A stretch of DNA of 64,000 nucleotides from Salinispira sp. (GCA_965602015.1 OZ271918.1:576001-640000), one strand, 5' to 3'; positions 25,662 to 49,359 are shown, numbered from the stretch's first letter. The notes: generated by a model from the letters alone, not told the origin. A program made the numbers and translations.

Positions 25662-26075
25662 ATGTCAGGTAAATCCGATAATAGAAACCGTGAGAGCCTG
25701 GGCGAACGGGAGCTGGAAATTTTAAAAATCATCTGGAGCCACCCGGAGTTGGGGGTTCGGGACATTCACCGACTCGTAGAGCAGGGGGGGAGTGCTTTGG
25801 CCCGAACGACGGTTCTTACCCTTATTCAGCGGCTAGAATCTAAAGGTTTCATCGAAAGGATTGATGGAGAACAGCCTGCACGATACCGGGCCCTTGAAAA
25901 ACGCGAATCCGTGCTGTCGCGGCTTTCAAAGTCCTTTGTCCACAAGATACTCGACGGCTCCCTGAAGCCGCTGATGCAGAGTTTTCTCTCCGATCAACCG
26001 AGCGAAGAGGAACTTGATGCTCTGCAAGCTCTCATCGATGAGCATCGCGAGGTCAAGAGGGGCGATGATAAATGA
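25662..26075 (+). CDS. BlaI/MecI/CopY family repressor
   Basis: LGERELEILKIIW, LARTTVLTLIQRLESKG, SFV..ILDGS. Confidence 0.93.
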   Translation: MSGKSDNRNRESLGERELEILKIIWSHPELGVRDIHRLVEQGGSALARTTVLTLIQRLESKGFIERIDGEQPARYRALEKRESVLSRLSKSFVHKILDGSLKPLMQSFLSDQPSEEELDALQALIDEHREVKRGDDK

Positions 26076-29000
26076 GTGTTGTACAACAGCTTGGCGTCAC
26101 GGTTTTACATAGCCTATGGCAGGGGTTCTTTGTGTATCTCATTTCCCGAATGCCTGCATTAAAATCATTGGTTGAATCGTCCAGAATACGGCTGATCTTT
26201 GCGCTTATCATCTTTCAGGTGGCTTTGAGCATTGCAACCTTCGGAATAGTTTCCGTATCTCATTTTAACTCGTCTTTCGGTCTGCAAGAGGCAGATCTCT
26301 CAGCGTCTGGCGGGGATCAGATGGAAGGTACCCGCGATTCCCTATCTGATCAGAATCCCGGAGATCTGGTTTTAGGAAATGGCGAAACGTCAGTCGCTGT
26401 TGCGATCGATGAGGGCGGCAGGTTTGCTGGTCTGTGGTCTATTGCAATGAGGTTTGTCGGAATGATGTGGTTTCCCGGAGTGCTGACAAGCATCTTCTTC
26501 TCTCTCTTCCGCCTTTCGGGGACCAAGCGACTGGGTCAACAGCTAACGCCAATTGATCAGCCGGATATCCGGCGGATAAATCAATGCTGTGCCAGTACGC
26601 TTGGTATACCAATATCGGGGCTGTATCATCATAAAAGAATTATGAGCCCCGTGGTTTTAGGATTGCTTCGCTTTAGCATCATTCTGCCGGTGGCCATGGT
26701 CAATTCACAGGATGAGAATTTAATTCGGGCGGTGCTTCTGCACGAATACCAGCACATTTTCTTTCAAGACGGGCTCTGGCAATACCTGGCTGAAATCCTC
26801 GGGGCGCTCTACTTTTTCCACCCCGCCATACGGGAAATGATACGGGAAATGCAGGTTCTTCGAGAAATGAGGGCTGATGACGGTGCCGCAAAGGTGCTCG
26901 GCGATCCCGTCGCATACAGCCAGCTGTTGGTTGACTGGGGCCGAGGAGCCCTTCCCGCCACCATCAAAACCGGCTTAAGCGCGTTTTCTGGTTCTACCGG
27001 GGATCTGCGAAGTCGCATACAGCGGCTTCTTGGTTTCAAGGTTCAGCCACAGCGCAGAAGTCTTTCTCTGGTTGCGCCACTACTTTTGGCTTCGGTGATT
27101 CTTGCGCTGATTTTTGCCGGTGGAATAGGGGCTAGCCGGGGAATAAGCGCCCTTCAACATCAGCAAAACTTGTCGGAGCTGGCAGAAATATCCCAAAAGC
27201 TGGGTACCGGAATAGATGCAGTCCGGGAAATGCCCTACCGGATAGAAGTGCAATACCAAGGCGATTTGGAAGAAAGAGAGCCTCCCCAGCTTCACATCGT
27301 CTATGGTTCAGACCTGATGAGCGCTTCTTCATCCGAAAAAGGAAGAAAACAGGGCGATGTGATTATCTACGAAGGCAGCGTTAATGCTTCCTACATAAAC
27401 TTTTCATTTCAGGACCTGAGATGGGCTCCGTGGTTTTCTCAGCGTATTGCAGAAGTTCCGGAGAGCGGTCGTATCGAGATGTCGGTAAATCTCCTCAAAA
27501 CCGAACCGACCCGCATCGCATTCATTTCCGAATCGGGTTCTCCGGTTGACCTGCCCAGCCTGGTATTTATGTTCGAACCAGTTAATAGTCAAGTATCTGC
27601 TTTTCCCCATATCCCCGTCGATCTACAAGATGATGGAAGTGTTGTGGTTTATACCGATCCGCTCCAGCCATATGCCCTCACGTTTTTAGCCCGTGCTCCT
27701 GGTTATGCAGATATTGAAGAAACAGTAAATCCGGATGGAGAAATGGTTTTTACCTTACACGCAGTGGTCGCCAGTCGCTTTCGCGTTCTTGATTTGAACG
27801 GAAGGCCGATGAGAAACCATGGTTTTTCAGTCATTCCCGGGTATTTTGATGAGATTTCCCATGACCCGCCCGAACAGATTTACAGTGATGAAGCGGGATA
27901 TATTGAGCTGATTCTTTCTCCCCGATACCGTTCAACTGTTCTGTCCTATGGGGGGCCGGAGTTTACCGCTTATGCGGTCATCGACCACGATACCCCTGCC
28001 CGCCGAATTCGATTCGAGGACCAGAGGTTTTCAGGTGCCATTACCGGGGTAATGGGTGACCAGGTCCATATCTCATTTCGCTTTAATATAGACACCCAGT
28101 ACAGCAGTACCAGGCAGGATGAGATAGGCGTTGATATAGAAGCAGGCAAGGCTGAGTTTTCTCTTCCCCTCGAGTGGCCGGTGACCGGCTTCGACGTCCA
28201 TCGCCAGGGGCAGTTTCTCTATGCTGCCGATTGGGACATCCGTAACGACGAACCTGTTGAAATTAGCTTGCAGGAATGGCAACCCGGTCAAGCAGCTGAT
28301 GCTTTGAGCTCCAGGGAAATAGAGTTGGCTTTTCGAACGCCGGAGGGACTTCCTCCGGTAAATGGGAATATTTCCCTGGAGATGCTGGGAGCCTCAAGAT
28401 TCGATGATTACGGGTATGAAAATCATTTTGGTTTTGTCTATGCAGATGTGGTAAATGGACGAGCTGTCATACATCTGCTCAGCAACATTGAGCAGGTAAA
28501 AATCGATAGCTTTGAGGTTTCGGGTTACTACTTCGATTCTTCGCCGATTCCTGTGCCTGCTGAGGCCGGACAGGTTGCCATCTCGTTGCACCCCGCCGCT
28601 TCGGTATCTGGGAGTGTTAGATTCAGCAATGGCTCGGCTCCCAGGAATGCGCATATTGTGCTGCGGGATGAAGATGATAGTATAGTTGACCAGGTAAACT
28701 CGCGAAACGGAAACTATCAATTCTCCAGCTTGACTCCTGGTAAGCGCTATAGCATTTCGGCAAGCGCGGGAATGTCCGGGGATTCTATCCGCAGGTTTAG
28801 AGCTTCAGGTGACGGATCACCAATTTTTGCGGACCTGAGGATTTCCCGTGGAAAGGATATCGTCATCAACCTGATCGATGACGTGGGCAATCATATACCT
28901 GGGGCGACGCCTGAAATTCGCTATGAGCATCGAAATCGAGACGCCAGCGGCCTGGTCAGTGTTTCTGAGTTTCCCTACACTGTGTATAATTTTGATCCCC

Positions 29001-29140
29001 GAGAATTCTCCCATATGATGTTGTTATTCGGGCATGAAGGACGGGCTTTTCAAATTGACCTGCTAGAAAAACTGCGCCGCAGCGATGGTGCGCTGCAGCT
29101 CCTAGTCTCCGAAGCCGAGCCCCGTGAACCGGAAGACTGA
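26072..29140 (+). CDS. BlaR1-like M56 metallopeptidase with a large beta-rich extracytoplasmic region
   Basis: LHSLWQG, SPVVLG, LLHEYQH, YFFHP, REMRADD, L.SRIQRL. C-terminal carboxypeptidase-regulatory-like segments (SVSGSV..NG..P, NGNYQFSSL.PG.Y). Confidence 0.88.
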   Translation: MSVVQQLGVTVLHSLWQGFFVYLISRMPALKSLVESSRIRLIFALIIFQVALSIATFGIVSVSHFNSSFGLQEADLSASGGDQMEGTRDSLSDQNPGDLVLGNGETSVAVAIDEGGRFAGLWSIAMRFVGMMWFPGVLTSIFFSLFRLSGTKRLGQQLTPIDQPDIRRINQCCASTLGIPISGLYHHKRIMSPVVLGLLRFSIILPVAMVNSQDENLIRAVLLHEYQHIFFQDGLWQYLAEILGALYFFHPAIREMIREMQVLREMRADDGAAKVLGDPVAYSQLLVDWGRGALPATIKTGLSAFSGSTGDLRSRIQRLLGFKVQPQRRSLSLVAPLLLASVILALIFAGGIGASRGISALQHQQNLSELAEISQKLGTGIDAVREMPYRIEVQYQGDLEEREPPQLHIVYGSDLMSASSSEKGRKQGDVIIYEGSVNASYINFSFQDLRWAPWFSQRIAEVPESGRIEMSVNLLKTEPTRIAFISESGSPVDLPSLVFMFEPVNSQVSAFPHIPVDLQDDGSVVVYTDPLQPYALTFLARAPGYADIEETVNPDGEMVFTLHAVVASRFRVLDLNGRPMRNHGFSVIPGYFDEISHDPPEQIYSDEAGYIELILSPRYRSTVLSYGGPEFTAYAVIDHDTPARRIRFEDQRFSGAITGVMGDQVHISFRFNIDTQYSSTRQDEIGVDIEAGKAEFSLPLEWPVTGFDVHRQGQFLYAADWDIRNDEPVEISLQEWQPGQAADALSSREIELAFRTPEGLPPVNGNISLEMLGASRFDDYGYENHFGFVYADVVNGRAVIHLLSNIEQVKIDSFEVSGYYFDSSPIPVPAEAGQVAISLHPAASVSGSVRFSNGSAPRNAHIVLRDEDDSIVDQVNSRNGNYQFSSLTPGKRYSISASAGMSGDSIRRFRASGDGSPIFADLRISRGKDIVINLIDDVGNHIPGATPEIRYEHRNRDASGLVSVSEFPYTVYNFDPREFSHMMLLFGHEGRAFQIDLLEKLRRSDGALQLLVSEAEPREPED
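29078..29118 (+). repeat. 41-bp direct repeat, copy B (inside the blaR-like 3' end)
   Basis: CGCAGCGATGGTGCGCTGCAGCTCCTAGTCTCCGAAGCCGA, matching 25535-25575. Confidence 0.9.
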
Positions 29141-32959: not shown

Positions 32960-33751
32960 CTAGGCGTTTTTTCGTGAAATGATTGTTGTAACCGCCAGTA
33001 CCAACGCGATTCCTATCAGGCTAATCAGAGATGAGAGCTCCACGGCGGTGTCGGGGGGGACGTCGATTCCGCTACGTTTGAGGTAGATACCAAAGAAGGC
33101 CCAGATTACAACCAGCGAAAAGCCTATGTCTTTTCTTGTGATGATGATTGCTATGGTAATCAATGCGCCGACAATGATAACCAGGGTTGCCCAGAATGCC
33201 TCACTGAGGCCGAACCCTCCCCAGCCGATATCGACTAAAAATGCCGTGACATTTGCAATGGTTGCCACGGTGATCCACCCGAGATATACGGAAAACGGAA
33301 GTTTCACCCACCAAAAGTCTCCGATAGTGCTTTTTTCCTTTCCGATTCGCAGTTTGAGATATATCACCAGAAGTGAGGCCAGGAGACCGAGCATAAATAC
33401 GAGGGAGAGTCCGGTCAAGGTCCAGTGCCAGGCAAATATCCAGGCAATATTCGCTATGGAAGATAGCAGGAACCAGGGACCGATAGCCCCCAGGTATGAC
33501 GCGTCCCGATTCTTCGCAAAGGAATTAACCAGGCTGTAAACAACAAAACCGATGAGCAGGGTATAAATTACCGCCCATATTGCGAAGGTCAGCCCGGCGG
33601 GGACAAAGAGATTCGGATACATATCCGAAAGCTGTCCGGTATCCATTCCGTTCAATGGGAGAATTGAAGCCAAAGCATTGATGGCTATTGTGGCTGCCAG
33701 GGCTGCCGCATTGACGAACGCCCAGACCTTTGTTTGATTCGCATTTTCCAT
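32960..33751 (-). CDS. Tryptophan-rich TspO/MBR-related membrane protein
   Basis: NALASILPLNG..TGQLSD.YPNLFVPAGLTFAIW, NIAWIFAW, PFSVYLGWITVATIAN. Confidence 0.75.
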   Translation of the reverse strand: MENANQTKVWAFVNAAALAATIAINALASILPLNGMDTGQLSDMYPNLFVPAGLTFAIWAVIYTLLIGFVVYSLVNSFAKNRDASYLGAIGPWFLLSSIANIAWIFAWHWTLTGLSLVFMLGLLASLLVIYLKLRIGKEKSTIGDFWWVKLPFSVYLGWITVATIANVTAFLVDIGWGGFGLSEAFWATLVIIVGALITIAIIITRKDIGFSLVVIWAFFGIYLKRSGIDVPPDTAVELSSLISLIGIALVLAVTTIISRKNA

Positions 33752-33876
33752 GTGCGCCTCCTTCCTTCATCATACTACTGCGGCGTCGGTATCGGTAGCA
33801 TTTTTTCCCATAAGGTCAATATGTTGCTCATCAGATCACATTGAACATGGCGCGCAATGTGTCATACTCTGTTTGT

Positions 33877-34764
33877 ATGATCTCAGACGAACTGCACGAT
33901 AGCCGCCTTGTTACCCGTTTTCGCGATCTCGAGATTTACCAGATCCATGGCACTGATGCGCCTCAAACCATGGCGGAGATCGGCCGTATCAGAGAGCATG
34001 AGTTCAGCTCCGACGGCGGCGGTACCGGGAAGGATATAGACATCGATGAGTACGATACTATGTCGTACTGCTACCAACTCCTCGTGTGGGATCCCAAATA
34101 TCAACAGATCCTCAGCGCATACCGCTATATTCCTATGTGGCGCATTCCCGCAGACCATCGGAAAAACGGATCTCCCAGTTCGAGATTATTTGATTTGTCC
34201 AATAGATTCTATGATGATATCGCGCCGGGCTGTATTGAACTTGGACGGTCGGTAGTGAACCGGAAAGCCAAAAGAAGCATTCTCGGTCTCTTCGCGGTGT
34301 GGAGCGGGCTCGGAGCCTTGATTGCCGAGCTTCCCCGGCTTCGGTGGTTTTTCGGGAAACTGACCCTGTATCCCGAGGTTCCCAAACATTTGCGGCATCG
34401 GATTTTTGCCTTCTGGGATCGTTTTTTTCCGGGAGATGAAACCTTGATGGCTCCGGTCGTGGATTATTCCATTGCCAAGGTTGAGAATGATTGGAGCGGA
34501 TATCCCGATATCGGGGATCGCGACACCGCATTTAAACGGCTTTCTGCTGAAATGTCCGATGCAGGATGGCCGGTTCCTCCGCTCATGAAGTCATACATTG
34601 CTGTTAGCAGTGAAATACAATCATTTGGAACGGCGCTGAACAGTCATTTTGGAAATGTATACGAAACGGCAATTCTCCTACCCATCGAAACCATCGGCGG
34701 AAAAACCCGGGAGCAATTTATCGATTCATATACCAGCATAAACCCCGGGCTGTTTAGCTATTGA
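33877..34764 (+). CDS. GNAT-fold N-acyltransferase (OlsB/Acetyltransf_5-like)
   Basis: EIGRIRE..F...GGGTG...DID.YD, AYR, IELGRS, PPL.K.Y. Confidence 0.8.
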   Translation: MISDELHDSRLVTRFRDLEIYQIHGTDAPQTMAEIGRIREHEFSSDGGGTGKDIDIDEYDTMSYCYQLLVWDPKYQQILSAYRYIPMWRIPADHRKNGSPSSRLFDLSNRFYDDIAPGCIELGRSVVNRKAKRSILGLFAVWSGLGALIAELPRLRWFFGKLTLYPEVPKHLRHRIFAFWDRFFPGDETLMAPVVDYSIAKVENDWSGYPDIGDRDTAFKRLSAEMSDAGWPVPPLMKSYIAVSSEIQSFGTALNSHFGNVYETAILLPIETIGGKTREQFIDSYTSINPGLFSY

Positions 34765-35705
34765 GGGAAGGTTCCGATTATCTCAAGGTAGTTTTCCAAG
34801 GGGAAGCCAAATTGATGCTCCCAAATTCTTGAGTACTCTCCGCTTAACAACGCCCATTCAAAAAACCGCTCCAGAATACCCGCCAGCACGGCGTCGTCAG
34901 CCCTGATGAGCCAATGCGCAAAGTCAATGTCGCTGCCGATTGCGAATGCGATGTTGAGGTTTGGATAATTAGTCAATTCGAACAGGGCGCTAATGCCGCC
35001 CGAGCTGGTCACATCGGCTTCGCCGGACGAGACCATTCGGGCCAGCTCTTCGGTGTCGGTTGCCCGGATACGGATGGTCGTAACAGCATTTCTTTCAAGT
35101 TCAGCATTGAGAACCTGGTAGTGAGCCGCGGTGGGAAACGAGGCGAGACGCAATCCTTCAAGATCATCGATGCTGTCGATCTTACTCTCGTTGCGGCTTA
35201 TCACCACGAAGCGATCCGGAATGGTAGGGATCAGAATGGCCAACTTTTCCCTCCAGGGACGGTAGCCAAAACCGTCAACGAGTATCCGGGTTCTCTGAAG
35301 GGAATCGGGAGTGTATGGCGGCAGTTCGCCTCCGGCTATGGAATCGAGCCTGTCCGGATCAGGCACCTCCCCATTGAGTGCAAAATATCTTGAAAAATTG
35401 TCGACTATTTCATATTCCAGCTCGACGCCTAGAGTTTCCGCGAAAAGCATGGCCATTTCAAATTCCAGTCCGCCGTGTTGCCCGATTCCATATTTATCCG
35501 GTTCAAATACCGATTCCCGTACTCTCGTGGTGATCCTAAGCAGTCCGCCGAGTTCGTCCCGTACGAAGCGGCGTTCTGCTTCGCTCAAAGCAAAGCCGGG
35601 ATTCAAAACCTCCGCGGCTTGGGGAGGCGGCTGTTCGGATTCTGGGTAACAGGAGATAAGCAACGGTACAAGCAGCAGTGCCGTCAATAAGATCTGTGAT
35701 TTCAT
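34758..35705 (-). CDS. Family 3 substrate-binding lipoprotein (MltF N-terminal-like), orphan
   Basis: Lipobox LISC, GLEFEMA..FAETLGVEL, IDSIDDLEG, VSSGEADV. Confidence 0.7.
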   Translation of the reverse strand: MKSQILLTALLLVPLLISCYPESEQPPPQAAEVLNPGFALSEAERRFVRDELGGLLRITTRVRESVFEPDKYGIGQHGGLEFEMAMLFAETLGVELEYEIVDNFSRYFALNGEVPDPDRLDSIAGGELPPYTPDSLQRTRILVDGFGYRPWREKLAILIPTIPDRFVVISRNESKIDSIDDLEGLRLASFPTAAHYQVLNAELERNAVTTIRIRATDTEELARMVSSGEADVTSSGGISALFELTNYPNLNIAFAIGSDIDFAHWLIRADDAVLAGILERFFEWALLSGEYSRIWEHQFGFPLENYLEIIGTFPQ

Positions 35706-36053
35706 TGCGTCCACCTCTGCTGCCTTTGCGTAAAAGCTTTTCACAATGTTATGCTGCCCGACGGTTTTGTCAAGGGCGCTGCATCGCCCGATACAAGCCA
35801 TATGAATGACCAGTCGCCTGTATGGCTTTACGATCAGTATCGTTCCATCGTCATTCATGAAAAGAAACCACATATAGTGATGTATGCCTTGTTACCTTAC
35901 AGAGATATTTCAATCAGACCTGAAAATATCCGTATTGGCAACCAGATATCTGCAATGTTGGTCCCAATAAACCACAAAAAGTGATTTTATTGAAGAAAAC
36001 CGTCGCCAACGAATCACGATATGTGTACTTTTAAGAAAACACAGGAGGTTCAT

Positions 36054-36860
36054 ATGAACGCATCGTTCTTTACTCTGAGCGTAGAAGCCTACGAACTGGT
36101 AGGACATATTCTTACACTCGGATATGCGGCCATGGCCGCTTCGCTTTTGTACTTCTGGCTGACAAAAAATGACAACATGCCTAAGTACCGTATGTCTTCA
36201 GTTCTATCAGTCGTCGTCATGACGTCCGCCTTTCTTCTGCTGTTCACTCAAAAGCAGAGCTGGACCGACGCCTATGTATACGAGAGTGGCCAATACGTTC
36301 TGCGCGAGGGAGCGGATCTGTTCACCAATGGCTTCCGATACCTGAACTGGATGATTGATGTACCGATGCTTCTCATTCAGATTCTGTTCGTTGCCGGAAT
36401 CGTCGGGGCTGCTCGGAGCAAGTATATATTCCAGTTCTCACTGTCCGGTGTACTGATGATTGTTACCGGATACATCGGACAATTCTACGAGCCCGGTCGG
36501 GATAATGCAAATTTGGTCGTGTGGCTCGTGTGGGGATTCATTTCAACGGTCTTTTTTGTATGGGTTCTCATCCTCATCACCAAGGTCATAAAGGATGGGG
36601 TTAAAAATATGGGCAGTTCCAAGGCTGCCGGTATTTTCGGCGCTATTCTGCCGCTGTTCTATGTATCCTGGTTTCTGTATCCCGGCGCGTACCTCATGCC
36701 CCTGCTGCTTGAATTGGGAATTGCCGACTACCAGTTTACTATCGTAGCGCAGCAGATGACATACACCATAGCGGATATCGCATCCAAGGTAATCTACGGC
36801 GCGATGCTGAACGTGGCATCCACCATCCTCAGTGAGGAACAGGGATTCGTCGCAACCTAA
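36054..36860 (+). CDS. Microbial rhodopsin with NDQ motif (light-driven Na+-pump family, KR2-like)
   Basis: Helix C NGFRYLNWMIDVPMLLIQIL gives N-D-Q. Helix G YTIADIASKVIYG carries the retinal Lys. Seven hydrophobic segments; RBS CAGGAGG. Confidence 0.95.
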   Translation: MNASFFTLSVEAYELVGHILTLGYAAMAASLLYFWLTKNDNMPKYRMSSVLSVVVMTSAFLLLFTQKQSWTDAYVYESGQYVLREGADLFTNGFRYLNWMIDVPMLLIQILFVAGIVGAARSKYIFQFSLSGVLMIVTGYIGQFYEPGRDNANLVVWLVWGFISTVFFVWVLILITKVIKDGVKNMGSSKAAGIFGAILPLFYVSWFLYPGAYLMPLLLELGIADYQFTIVAQQMTYTIADIASKVIYGAMLNVASTILSEEQGFVAT

Positions 36861-36880: not shown

Positions 36881-36912
36881 AAAAACGCCGCGCTCCCCCG
36901 CGGCGTTTTTTT
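36881..36912 (+). terminator. Bidirectional-type intrinsic terminator after the rhodopsin
   Basis: AAAAACGCCGCG-ctcccc-CGCGGCGTTTTTTT. Confidence 0.9.
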
Positions 36913-38570: not shown

Positions 38571-38674
38571 GTGGCACTAACAAAAGATCCCTATGCAATG
38601 TAGAAGTCCGGCCGTATATTTGCTGGGGAGCTGCTGCTATCATCGGCTCCCAATCCGCATTGGAGGGTACAATC

Positions 38675-39574
38675 ATGGGCAATTTACGAGCATGGCTTCA
38701 AGCTTCACGTCTCCCGTCCCAGACTTACATCGCATTCCCGATATTGGCCGGCCAAATGGCAGCCTTCGCAATAACCGGAAACTGGAGCTGGATGGGTTTT
38801 TTTCTTGCGCAGCTCTTTGGGATTTTCGATCAACTCTACATCGTATACGCCAATGATTGGGCTGATGTGGAAACCGATTCGGCAAATGAGACCTTCAATA
38901 TGTTTTCCGGAGGATCGCGGGTGGTGGTCGACGGGATGATCAGCCGGAAGGCACTTGGTATTGCTGCCATATTTATGGCAACGCTTTCTGTGGTCGTCGG
39001 TGGGCTGATTTCCCTGATCCAGTTTTCTGCCTTGCCGCTTGCTTTTTCTATTCTCGGCGTGCTGCTCTTGTGGGGGTACAGTTATCCCCCTTTAAAGTTG
39101 AGCTACCGGGGTGGCGGCGAGTTTCTGCAGATGCTTGGGGTCGGCGGAGTATTGCCCCTGCTCGGGTTTATGGCCCAAGGTGGTAGCTTTGAATCTTTCC
39201 CGCTTATGCTCCTCGCAGTTAGCCTGCCAATCTCCTTGGCCTGCGGCATGGCCACGAGCATCCCCGATGAACCCTCCGACCGCAGCTCCGAAAAGCGTAC
39301 TGCAAGCGTAATCCTCGGAGCCGTCCCGGTGCAAATGCCTATTATTATTCTGGCGATCTTTAGTATTTTTTTATGGATAGCGGCGCCCATGGTTCTGCAG
39401 CCCGCGTTAGCCCTGCGATTGGCTGCCGGAGCCCTTCCACTGGTCCTGCTTACGGGCTCATTGTTCTCCTACGGCGGAAAAGCCGGCAGCGGTAAGCTCA
39501 ACCGCTTCGTCACACTTTTGGTGGCCTCAAACGTTACCTTCTTTCTCGGAATCAGTGTGGTATTACTTTTTTGA
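38675..39574 (+). CDS. menA: UbiA-family prenyltransferase, MenA-like
   Basis: ASR..S, NDWAD..TD...FSGGSR, YSYPP.KL.YRG.GE, PD..SD...KRT. Confidence 0.7.
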   Translation: MGNLRAWLQASRLPSQTYIAFPILAGQMAAFAITGNWSWMGFFLAQLFGIFDQLYIVYANDWADVETDSANETFNMFSGGSRVVVDGMISRKALGIAAIFMATLSVVVGGLISLIQFSALPLAFSILGVLLLWGYSYPPLKLSYRGGGEFLQMLGVGGVLPLLGFMAQGGSFESFPLMLLAVSLPISLACGMATSIPDEPSDRSSEKRTASVILGAVPVQMPIIILAIFSIFLWIAAPMVLQPALALRLAAGALPLVLLTGSLFSYGGKAGSGKLNRFVTLLVASNVTFFLGISVVLLF

Positions 39575-48357: not shown

Positions 48358-49359
48358 ATGAAACGAGTTGCAATTAATGGCTTTGGCAGGATCGGCAGGG
48401 CAGTGTTCAAGCTGATCTCCGAGGAAACAGACCTGGAAGTGGTGGCAATCAATGACCTGCTTCCTGCCGATGCCCTGGCGTATCTGCTTCAGTTCGACAC
48501 GGTGTACGGCAGGTATCCCAGCACGGTTATCGCATCGGGAGATACTCTTCTGGTCGGCGATGCTTCGGTTTTTATCAGCGCGGAGAAAGACCCTGAAAAA
48601 CTCCCCTGGAGGGATCTTGACATCGATATTGTCGTAGAATCCACCGGATTCTTTACCAAAATGGAGAAAGCGAAAGCCCACCTTGTAGCCGGTGCGAAGA
48701 AAGTGGTTATTTCAGCACCGACAAAAAGTCCCGAGCTAGCTACCGCCGTGTACGGAGTAGCCCATCCTGAATCGTCGGAGCCTAATATATTCAGTTGCGC
48801 ATCCTGCACTACCAACAGCATCGCACCGGTGGCAGAAGTAATGGCTCGCAGAGTCGGTGTAAAAAAAGCAATTCTGACCACCATTCATGCATACACGGCC
48901 TCTCATCAGATTGTCGATCTGCCTTCCAATAAAAAGCGGTTCGGCAGAGCTGCGGCACAGAATATAATTCCGGCTACCACAGGGGCAGCCATCGCCACCA
49001 CTAAAGTTCTTCCCCAGTTGTCGGGTAAATTTGATGGCACAGCAGTTCGCGTGCCCGTCGCCGTCGGATCACTCTCGGACATCACCTTTGTGACTGAACG
49101 CCCTGTCAGCAAAGAGGAAATCAACGAGATATTCAAGGAAGAAGCAGCGACACAACGGTATAAACAGGTCTTGGCTGTGAATGAAGAGGAAATTGTATCG
49201 TCTGATATTATCGGTAACCCTCACGCTGCCATTGTGGATTTGACCCTTACCCAGATTGTGGACGGAGATTTGGTAAAGATTTTTGCCTGGTATGACAACG
49301 AATGGGGCTACTCAAATCAGTTGGTCAGGGAGATAAAAAGCAGTCTGGGCCTGCAGTAG
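48358..49359 (+). CDS. gap: Type I glyceraldehyde-3-phosphate dehydrogenase
   Basis: INGFGRIGR, ESTG, ASCTTN, TTIHAYT, NIIP.TTGAA, WYDNEWGYS. Confidence 0.96.
   Translation: MKRVAINGFGRIGRAVFKLISEETDLEVVAINDLLPADALAYLLQFDTVYGRYPSTVIASGDTLLVGDASVFISAEKDPEKLPWRDLDIDIVVESTGFFTKMEKAKAHLVAGAKKVVISAPTKSPELATAVYGVAHPESSEPNIFSCASCTTNSIAPVAEVMARRVGVKKAILTTIHAYTASHQIVDLPSNKKRFGRAAAQNIIPATTGAAIATTKVLPQLSGKFDGTAVRVPVAVGSLSDITFVTERPVSKEEINEIFKEEAATQRYKQVLAVNEEEIVSSDIIGNPHAAIVDLTLTQIVDGDLVKIFAWYDNEWGYSNQLVREIKSSLGLQ

Follow-up and report, generated by a model that had tools for sequence, protein, structure and literature searches.

An NDQ rhodopsin from a spirochaete, predicted to pump Na+ in the light, and its sister branch of the KR2-type pumps

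The open reading frame at positions 36054-36860 of a 64,000-nucleotide stretch of the Salinispira sp. genome (GCA_965602015.1, OZ271918.1:576001-640000; here called the window) encodes an intact NDQ rhodopsin of the KR2 family that probably acts as a light-driven outward Na+ pump. Judged from the alignments and trees described below, this protein (the window rhodopsin) belongs to a large and apparently unstudied sister branch of the known Na+ pumps that is without their charged cluster. Its members account for at least 80 of 398 species-level genomes with a relative and for at least 120 clusters at 90% identity. Two features found in every studied member of the family, the E11-E160-R243 triad (KR2 numbering) and the E-N-F cap motif, are both missing in the predicted protein.

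Research on light-driven Na+ pumps is built on KR2, IaNaR, ErNaR and a small number of relatives, and every one of these carries the E11-E160-R243 triad. The role of this triad is still argued, as it has been considered a Na+ release path, a gate-opening device or a stabiliser alone.

The rhodopsin gene and its residues in KR2 numbering

The features of the gene and its surroundings, in window coordinates, are as follows.

34758-35873, minus strand: divergent neighbour 5' of the rhodopsin gene
36043..36048, plus strand: Shine-Dalgarno sequence AGGAGG, 5 nt 5' of the ATG, read directly
36054..36860, plus strand: rhodopsin gene (P0001), 268 aa; NDQ-motif, KR2-family member of the short-N / Q243 / EPGR clade; predicted light-driven Na+ pump
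36054..36083, plus strand: truncated N-terminus MNASFFTLSV; 8 residues precede the conserved S-V-E, none is acidic, and E-N-[F/Y] is absent
36198..36200, plus strand: codon of S49, at the KR2 N61 position of the cytoplasmic uptake filter (HMMER alignment)
36336..36380, plus strand: helix C, R95-Y-L-N98-W-M-I-D102-V-P-M-L-L-I-Q109, with the R109 equivalent and the NDQ motif
36489..36500, plus strand: E146-P147-G148-R149, the E160 equivalent and clade-specific insertion in the extracellular D-E loop
36750..36752, plus strand: codon of Q233, at the KR2 R243 position (HMMER alignment)
36774..36788, plus strand: D241-I-A-S-K245, the D251 counterion and the retinal Schiff-base lysine
36810..36812, plus strand: codon of N253, at the KR2 G263 position of the cytoplasmic uptake filter (HMMER alignment)
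36886..36912, plus strand: terminator-like hairpin 3' of the rhodopsin stop, with a 7-bp GC stem and a 6-nt loop followed by a T7 run

The rhodopsin gene is monocistronic and has its own intrinsic terminator-like hairpin; the upstream neighbour is divergent, and the gene therefore stands alone. Its translation contains RYLNWMIDVPMLLIQ, ADIASK, MNASFFTL, MSSVLS, YGAMLN and VAQQM, so that the peptides quoted in a first-pass annotation of the window, including the lysine in ADIASK and the short N-terminus, are all present in this frame, together with the strong ribosome-binding site reported there.

Relatives were drawn from two sources. A database clustered at 90% identity yielded 1182 relatives at E<=1e-20, the best 120 of which are 64-100% identical to the window rhodopsin. 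One genome per GTDB species was also scanned; 398 of these genomes had a relative, and the best 80 loci (59-82% identity) were taken. These 120 database homologues and 80 genome loci form the clade sample of 200 sequences. The KR2-type sample consists of the 120 closest relatives of a KR2/IaNaR-type representative (P0123) and not of KR2 itself. An in-frame ATG at 36021 was considered as the start of the gene and rejected: it is without a Shine-Dalgarno sequence, no homologue begins as far upstream, and short starts are the rule in the 120 closest database homologues (115) and in the genome loci (all 80). SD-like purine runs precede equally short starts in nearly all of the best 80 homologous loci.

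The window rhodopsin matches Pfam PF01036 (Bac_rhodopsin) at 4.9e-38, with 131 bits against a cut-off of 24.6. Its best solved relatives in HMMER searches are IaNaR (8JH0, 2.1e-73) and KR2 (4XTL, 3.5e-67), followed at a greater distance by Cl- pumps (approximately 3e-44) and ErNaR (1.1e-43). Together with the HMMER alignment to KR2, these matches bear out its earlier assignment as an NDQ rhodopsin of the KR2 family. An AF2 model built on a 106-row alignment has seven long helices, a mean pLDDT of 95.7 and a pTM of 0.91, with helix A beginning at residue 10. Comparison with seven spirochaete orthologues indicates purifying selection on the gene (pN 0.13-0.17 vs pS 0.67-0.83), as synonymous sites are saturated and non-synonymous differences few. 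The GC content of the gene (49.4%) lies within one SD of that of the genome (53.8 +/- 4.4%), and composition thus gives no signal of recent import.

KR2 numbering was transferred through the HMMER alignment of the window rhodopsin to KR2. In this alignment, H30, S70, D102 and R109 of KR2 correspond to H18, S58, D88 and R95 of the window rhodopsin, N112, D116 and Q123 to N98, D102 and Q109, and E160, D251 and K255 to E146, D241 and K245. Similarly, N61, R243 and G263 correspond to S49, Q233 and N253, and 17 residues precede the H30 equivalent, vs 29 in KR2. Every residue call of the first-pass annotation was upheld, including the positions listed as conserved (H30, S70, D102, R109, E160 and D251) and the changes at N61, R243 and G263.

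The inner transport set of KR2 is complete in the window rhodopsin (S58, L62, Q66, R95, N98, D102, Q109, D241 and S244), and the inner polar set S64, S70, Q78 and S254 (S52, S58, Q66 and S244) is conserved in the clade. Across the 200 clade sequences, the equivalents of S60, S64, S70, L74, Q78, R109, N112, D116, Q123, E160, D251 and K255 are invariant or nearly so; the Q78 equivalent (Q66) is invariant, and the position of the retinal lysine K245 is Lys in 199 of the 200. The equivalents of R109 and of the N, D and Q of the motif are invariant in all 320 aligned sequences. H18 and Y140, which align with the pentamer-interface residues His30 and Tyr154 of KR2, are present and conserved in the clade.

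The window rhodopsin carries the full 'RNDQDK' set (R95, N98, D102, Q109, D241 and K245), which is the criterion that defines the NDQ Na+-pump clade (PMC11006869). Within that clade, Podoliak et al. (2024) found Leu or Ile at the KR2 L74 position in NaR Subgroup 1 and Glu in Subgroup 2 (PMC11006869). The Leu at this position (L62), shared by 200 of 200 clade sequences, thus assigns the window rhodopsin to Subgroup 1. The hallmark of the NTQ Cl- pumps, a Thr at KR2 D116, is not found, the residue there being D102. From the E11-E160-R243 triad solely E160 is kept (E146), as R243 is replaced by Q233 and no acidic residue stands before S-V-E.

A sister branch of the KR2-type pumps

In a FastTree phylogeny of 127 rows, the window rhodopsin and all 80 genome loci fall into one 81-row clade with a support of 100 and a stem length of 0.5. 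Its sister group is the KR2-type clade (support 98), with a support of 95 at the node that joins the two. In a quick IQ-TREE search with a mixture model on 56 rows, the SH-aLRT values were 99 for this clade and 96 for its KR2-type counterpart. The search also paired the window rhodopsin with an Alkalispirochaeta sp. locus at 95; the deeper order is unsafe because of long outgroup branches. Eleven alignment positions tell the clade and the KR2-type group apart at a level of >=93% in each. Members of the clade are compact, with a length of 256-270 aa.

The R243 position separates the two groups completely, being Gln in 120/120 database homologues and 80/80 genome loci and Arg in 120/120 KR2-type sequences; it is likewise Arg in all 16 of the other NDQ representatives at 50% identity. 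An N-terminal E-N-[F/Y/...] motif, which carries E11, is found in every full-length NDQ representative outside the clade (12 of 12) and in all 120 KR2-type sequences, and is absent here. The median number of residues before H30 is 17 in both the database homologues and the genome loci and 28 in the KR2-type sample.

The two positions of the cytoplasmic uptake filter present a different picture. At N61, Ser is found in 111/120 database homologues, 69/80 genome loci and 106/120 KR2-type sequences. The G263 position holds N in 70, T in 40 and S in 8 of the 120 homologues, N in 47, T in 18 and Q in 8 of the 80 loci, and T in 114, G in 5 and N in none of the 120 KR2-type sequences. The N/G pair of KR2 itself is a minority state, present in 5/120 KR2-type sequences, and an S/N pair occurs in 27 of the 29 Spirochaetota loci among the best 80 of 398. 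The first-pass annotation had described an altered ion-uptake filter on the strength of these two residues. Ser is indeed present at the first, but it is no alteration: since 106 of the 120 KR2-type sequences and the proven Na+ pump IaNaR have Ser, this is the normal state of a Na+ pump. Asn is present at the second and is foreign to the KR2-type sample, yet it is the norm of the clade rather than a peculiarity of this protein. Read from the alignment, the altered filter therefore largely dissolves, while the loss of the triad is genuine and clade-wide. The wider proposal, that the residue set marks a natural variant, stands in so far as the set is absent from every characterised NaR, but it is not unique, being the signature of a large clade. 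An alignment and a tree had been named as the check, with commonness of the set among NaRs as the outcome that would speak against the proposal; the set proved to be common in one big branch, which goes half of the way to that outcome.

KR2 (Krokinobacter/Dokdonia eikastus rhodopsin 2; PDB 4XTL, 3X3B and 6REX, among others) is approximately 50% identical to the window rhodopsin over residues 10-263. The two have in common the NDQ motif, R109, D251, K255, S70, L74, Q78, H30, Y154, D102 and E160. In contrast to KR2, the window rhodopsin has 12 fewer N-terminal residues, no E11, Gln for R243, Ser for N61 and Asn for G263, a four-residue P-G-R-D insertion after E160, and a B-C hairpin that is shorter by two residues. 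IaNaR, the Na+ pump of Indibacter alkaliphilus (8JH0), shares the Ser at the N61 position. Unlike the window rhodopsin, wild-type IaNaR has an N helix (residues 9-17), an E10-E159-R242 cluster and Thr at the G263 position; it is without the EPGR insertion and has Gln where the window rhodopsin has E14. In ErNaR (Erythrobacter sp. HL-111, 8QLE; NaR Subgroup 2) the N-terminus is likewise short and includes a one-turn helix (PMC11006869), and the AF2 model is similar here. However, ErNaR keeps its E5-E149-R234 triad and has Glu at the L74 position, whereas the window rhodopsin has Leu and no triad. The short-N NDQ rhodopsins of Izemoplasmatales and Acholeplasmataceae belong to the same 81-row clade as the window rhodopsin, although their hosts are of a different phylum.

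BeNaR (Bellilinea) was considered as a possible member of the clade. Its D116-D251 spacing is 129 (D101 and D230; PMC10608830), compared with 134-139 in the clade, and these residue numbers are matched by none of the analysed sequences; from the numbering only, BeNaR is probably outside the clade. No characterised member was found in literature searches on NDQ or sodium-pumping rhodopsins of spirochaetes, Izemoplasma, Desulfobacter, Alkalispirochaeta and Ningiella. The main text of PMC11006869 does not contain the term 'Spirochaet', although the alignment and tree supplements of that paper may contain clade members, and the main text of PMC6146748 makes no mention of one.

In place of the N helix, the window rhodopsin has a short N-terminus, where AF2 places a single helical turn at residues 3-5 (mean pLDDT 77 over the first ten residues). 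The earlier statement that the E11-bearing N-terminal helix is absent is thus right as to the glutamate, but 'no cap' was too strong. Among the best 120 database homologues, the stretch before S-V-E is at most 12 residues long in 115 and exactly 8 in 85; three of the other five are long, probably with mis-called starts, and two are without the S-V-E motif. Of the 115 short N-termini, 101 contain an acidic residue, which is residue 4 in 70 cases, and the window rhodopsin (MNASFF) is one of the 14 that have none. Its own E11 and E14 stand at the start of helix A, after the short N-terminus.

The second element of the signature is the insertion P-G-R-D directly after E146. Within the clade sample its Pro is present in 200/200, its Gly in 199/200 and Arg149 in 193/200 sequences, and all 120 KR2-type sequences have a gap there. 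DSSP analysis of the AF2 model assigns residues 144-153, which hold E146-P-G-R149, to a loop. Glu14 on helix A is also a clade-separating position, at which the KR2-type group has Gln (KR2 Q26). Glu14 and Arg149 covary: Arg accompanies Glu in 192 of 192 sequences, and Thr accompanies Gln or Asn in 7 of 7. All seven of the latter belong to a single Acholeplasmataceae subclade, which has lost both E14 and R149, and the covariation therefore amounts to two independent transitions only, one at the clade stem and one reversal.

In KR2 pentamers, helices B, C and D touch helices A' and B' of the neighbour (PMC6457933). Among these contacts are a hydrogen bond between His30' and Tyr154 and, at D102/Y25', an interfacial Na+ site (PMC6457933). 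With E14 a single turn outward from H18, and R149 immediately past helix D, the geometry makes it plausible that E14 and R149 pair, perhaps across protomers. Because helix A' faces helix D of the neighbour in KR2 pentamers, such a pair may bridge protomers beside the interfacial Na+ site of KR2. Tentatively, and with the odds against it, the clade might have rebuilt an extracellular charge network from Glu14 and Arg149 rather than merely losing the triad lock.

Distribution, host genome and retinal supply

According to record labels, 29 of the clade loci (best 80 of 398) are from Spirochaetota. The other lineages so labelled are Desulfobacterales, Desulfocapsaceae, Izemoplasmatales, Acholeplasmataceae and Bacilli MAGs, Acidobacteriota, Nitrospiraceae, Planctomycetota and Verrucomicrobiota, as well as two Alteromonadaceae, including Ningiella ruwaisensis B66. 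Within the GTDB order of the host, the rhodopsin is present in 31 of 99 genomes, in 22 of the 50 high-quality ones and in 13 of 26 genera, and the family of the host has it in 2 of 8 genomes. It is absent from a complete genome of the host's genus and from all 400 other sampled genomes of the phylum. The rhodopsin is therefore an accessory gene that is common, but patchily spread, within one spirochaete order. Of the 12 genes that flank the rhodopsin here, none is found again next to it in the 80 loci, save for generic ABC-ATPase matches (32-35% identity). In a same-genus genome (G005), the genes that flank the rhodopsin are scattered over three places at approximately 67% DNA identity, and no insertion site can thus be defined.

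The host genome is a single 3.87-Mb contig with 53.8% GC. Three FlaA periplasmic-flagellum genes were found in it, while FlaA was found in 0 of 14 control genomes; with Alkalispirochaeta and Spirochaetaceae as the sources of the nearest homologues, the suspicion of a spirochaete host was confirmed. GAPDH is weakly diagnostic as a taxonomic marker here, as its best match is 73% identical and Spirochaetaceae matches (61-62%) are interleaved with cyanobacterial ones.

The genome contains one rhodopsin only. It also contains a crtB-crtI-CruF-like cluster, a fused two-domain lycopene cyclase and one RPE65-family carotenoid oxygenase (CCO), the last matched at 2.4e-111 but below every NCBIfam equivalog cut-off. 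The retinal of the host is presumably supplied through these carotenoid genes and the CCO. No Blh was found in the host genome by a search that finds Blh in two relatives; in G427 and G443, it lies approximately 1.5 kb downstream of the rhodopsin. CCO homologues directly adjoin the rhodopsin in three Spirochaetaceae loci (L017, L033 and L024). In the order as a whole, 11 of 14 CCO-positive genomes have the rhodopsin, compared with 20 of 85 CCO-negative ones, although the Fisher test (p of 1e-4) exaggerates the significance, since genomes of relatives are not independent samples. No CCO match was found in these 20 rhodopsin-positive genomes.

Four RnfD/NqrB-type loci are present in the host genome, together with a single V-type ATPase K subunit (2e-61). 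The K subunit shows T-Q, Q and E-T at the places that would correspond to the Na+ ligands of Enterococcus hirae NtpK. The four loci and the V-type ATPase fit a sodium-based energy economy, in which the pump would supplement the sodium-motive force in the light.

Proposed function, alternatives and significance

As the inner transport machinery of KR2 is intact, outward light-driven Na+ pumping is the most likely function of the window rhodopsin. In the proposed cycle, light would isomerise retinal on K245, and the Schiff-base proton would pass to D102. Na+ would then enter from the cytoplasm past S49/N253 and the S52-Q109 gate, bind transiently near N98/D241 and exit past R95 along the conserved route lined by Q66. 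The extracellular lock of the studied pumps is missing here (S4, E146 and Q233), with E14 and Arg149 as a candidate replacement ion pair.

Studies on mutants of known pumps bear on whether Na+ can be released without the triad. In IaNaR, E10Q alone nearly abolishes pumping, while the engineered E10Q/R242Q double mutant, which mimics the S4/Q233 state of the window rhodopsin, regains Na+ pumping and a photocycle with K, L/M and O, at reduced activity (PMC10679507). In KR2, substitutions of E11, E160 and R243 were reported to destabilise the protein but to leave pumping, and an alternative release path lined by Q78 was proposed (PMC7195465). A review describes R243A/Q and E11A of KR2 as lowering Na+ pumping as well as destabilising the protein (PMC10608830).

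Those losses are what make it conceivable, though improbable, that without the E11-R243 lock Na+ release is crippled and that the protein is mainly an outward H+ pump in vivo or a weak, slow pump. All cluster-less IaNaR mutants pump less than wild type, and O2 decay takes 13 ms in E10Q/R242Q vs 5.5 ms in wild type (PMC10679507), so that the activity of the window rhodopsin could be weak unless compensated. KR2 R243Q and E11A point the same way, and NaRs pump H+ when Na+ is scarce (PMC7195465). Against this, the NDQ motif is invariant and position 123 is Q, not E or D; strong purifying selection acts on a clade that is both large and old, and a clade-specific insertion with a conserved Arg suggests compensation. 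The relatives are, moreover, labelled as saline or alkaline lineages such as Alkalispirochaeta, for which abundant Na+ is inferred from names only. Somewhat less improbable, but still unlikely, is a changed cation selectivity, as raised in the first-pass annotation, for example towards K+ or a broader range of alkali cations, that arises from the S49/N253 filter. G263 changes alter the selectivity of KR2, and substitutions of N61 and G263 turn it into a K+ or Cs+ pump (PMC10608830); at the G263 position, Asn is found in 117 of 200 clade sequences but not in any of the 120 KR2-type ones. However, the Ser at N61 is the majority state of KR2-type pumps and is that of the Na+-pumping IaNaR, and the engineered K+ pumps use bulky hydrophobics (W, F, L and P), not the polar Asn (PMC10608830). 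The G263 position also varies freely in the clade (N, T, S, Q, A and G), which argues against a tight new specificity.

The idea that the gene is silent, or yields an apo-protein because it was recently acquired by a host without a chromophore supply, has very little to recommend it. The missing Blh, the same-genus complete genome without the gene and the lack of synteny with any of the 80 related loci could be read in this way. They are opposed by the intact frame with its strong Shine-Dalgarno sequence and terminator, by a GC content that is not anomalous and the purifying selection, by the presence of crtB, crtI, lycopene cyclase and CCO in the host, and by the enrichment of the rhodopsin in CCO-positive genomes of the order, again with the proviso that these genomes are not independent. 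Outward Na+ pumping by an intact, functional rhodopsin thus remains the preferred reading.

A branch of predicted Na+ pumps without the triad represents a natural test of the role of the triad. If the proposed E14/R149 network is real, nature would have arrived at a different gate and release architecture for pumping Na+ with light. The compact pumps of the clade might also serve as optogenetic tools. Going by record labels only, predicted Na+-pumping rhodopsins are carried by anaerobe-rich lineages, including spirochaetes, sulfate reducers and the wall-less Izemoplasmatales. The link between the rhodopsin and Blh or an RPE65-type oxygenase in these genomes bears on the use of light by fermenters with a sodium economy.

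Putative retinal-forming enzymes and carotenoid genes

In three Spirochaetaceae loci, the rhodopsin gene is directly adjoined by a gene for an RPE65-family carotenoid oxygenase, and these oxygenases share 43-44% identity with the sole member of this family in the Salinispira sp. genome:

L017 4428-5843, minus strand, RPE65-family carotenoid oxygenase beside rhodopsin
L033 6976-8385, minus strand, RPE65-family carotenoid oxygenase beside rhodopsin
L024 1883-2830, plus strand, RPE65-family carotenoid oxygenase beside rhodopsin
G000:C1:1313930-1315441 (L005 4931-6442), the only RPE65-family carotenoid oxygenase of the Salinispira sp. genome

Two other relatives (genomes G427 and G443) carry Blh instead, about 1.5 kb downstream of rhodopsin. 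Thus, the pump seems to be partnered by two alternative retinal-forming enzymes within one order.

A carotenoid gene cluster and a UbiA-family gene were located in the Salinispira sp. genome:

L004 7068-10253, gene cluster of crtB, crtI and a CruF-like (PF04240) gene
window 38660-39574, UbiA-family prenyltransferase with weak MenA-like scores

The UbiA-family gene lies two genes downstream of rhodopsin. The pairing of CruF with a UbiA enzyme may be reminiscent of haloarchaeal bacterioruberin genes.

Other genes around the rhodopsin

The window has four other genes of note:

26072-29140, plus strand, 1022-aa protein combining an M56 peptidase domain of BlaR1 type with a carboxypeptidase-regulatory-like domain
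32960-33751, minus strand, Trp-rich multi-pass membrane protein (263 aa)
33841-34764, plus strand, GNAT-domain protein
34758-35873, minus strand, 371-aa protein

The GNAT-domain protein matched the glycine N-acyltransferase GlsB model NF053696 at 230.9 bits, below the cut-off of 300, as well as the C-terminal half of OlsF, and is a candidate lipo-amino-acid synthase by these matches. Neither the 263-aa nor the 371-aa protein, both of which flank the rhodopsin region, was assigned to a Pfam or NCBIfam family; the latter showed only sub-threshold matches, all to solute-binding proteins. At 1022 aa, the protein with the M56 peptidase domain exceeds the usual length of its family.

Possible sodium economy and conservation of the pump

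The single V-type ATPase K subunit of the genome (L095 1489-1923, minus strand, outside the window; NF005174, 2e-61) carries T-Q, Q and E-T in TM2, TM3 and TM4, respectively, a pattern that would correspond to the residues by which NtpK of Enterococcus hirae binds Na+. The genome also contains four RnfD/NqrB-family loci.

The rhodopsin is 82% identical to that of an Alkalispirochaeta sp. (L008; chromosome of 3,904,909 bp), whereas GAPDH (window 48358-49359, plus strand) shares only 68% identity with P0396 of the same chromosome. Hence, the pump either is conserved above this glycolytic housekeeping enzyme or was exchanged more recently.

A subclade lacking E11, E14 and R149

The shortest proteins (250-256 aa) form one Acholeplasmataceae subclade (L069, L075-L080 and L087), in which E11 is replaced by S, E14 by Q or N and R149 by T. 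Since the three residues were lost jointly, this subclade represents a natural 'triple revertant' for probing the proposed E14-R149 ion pair.
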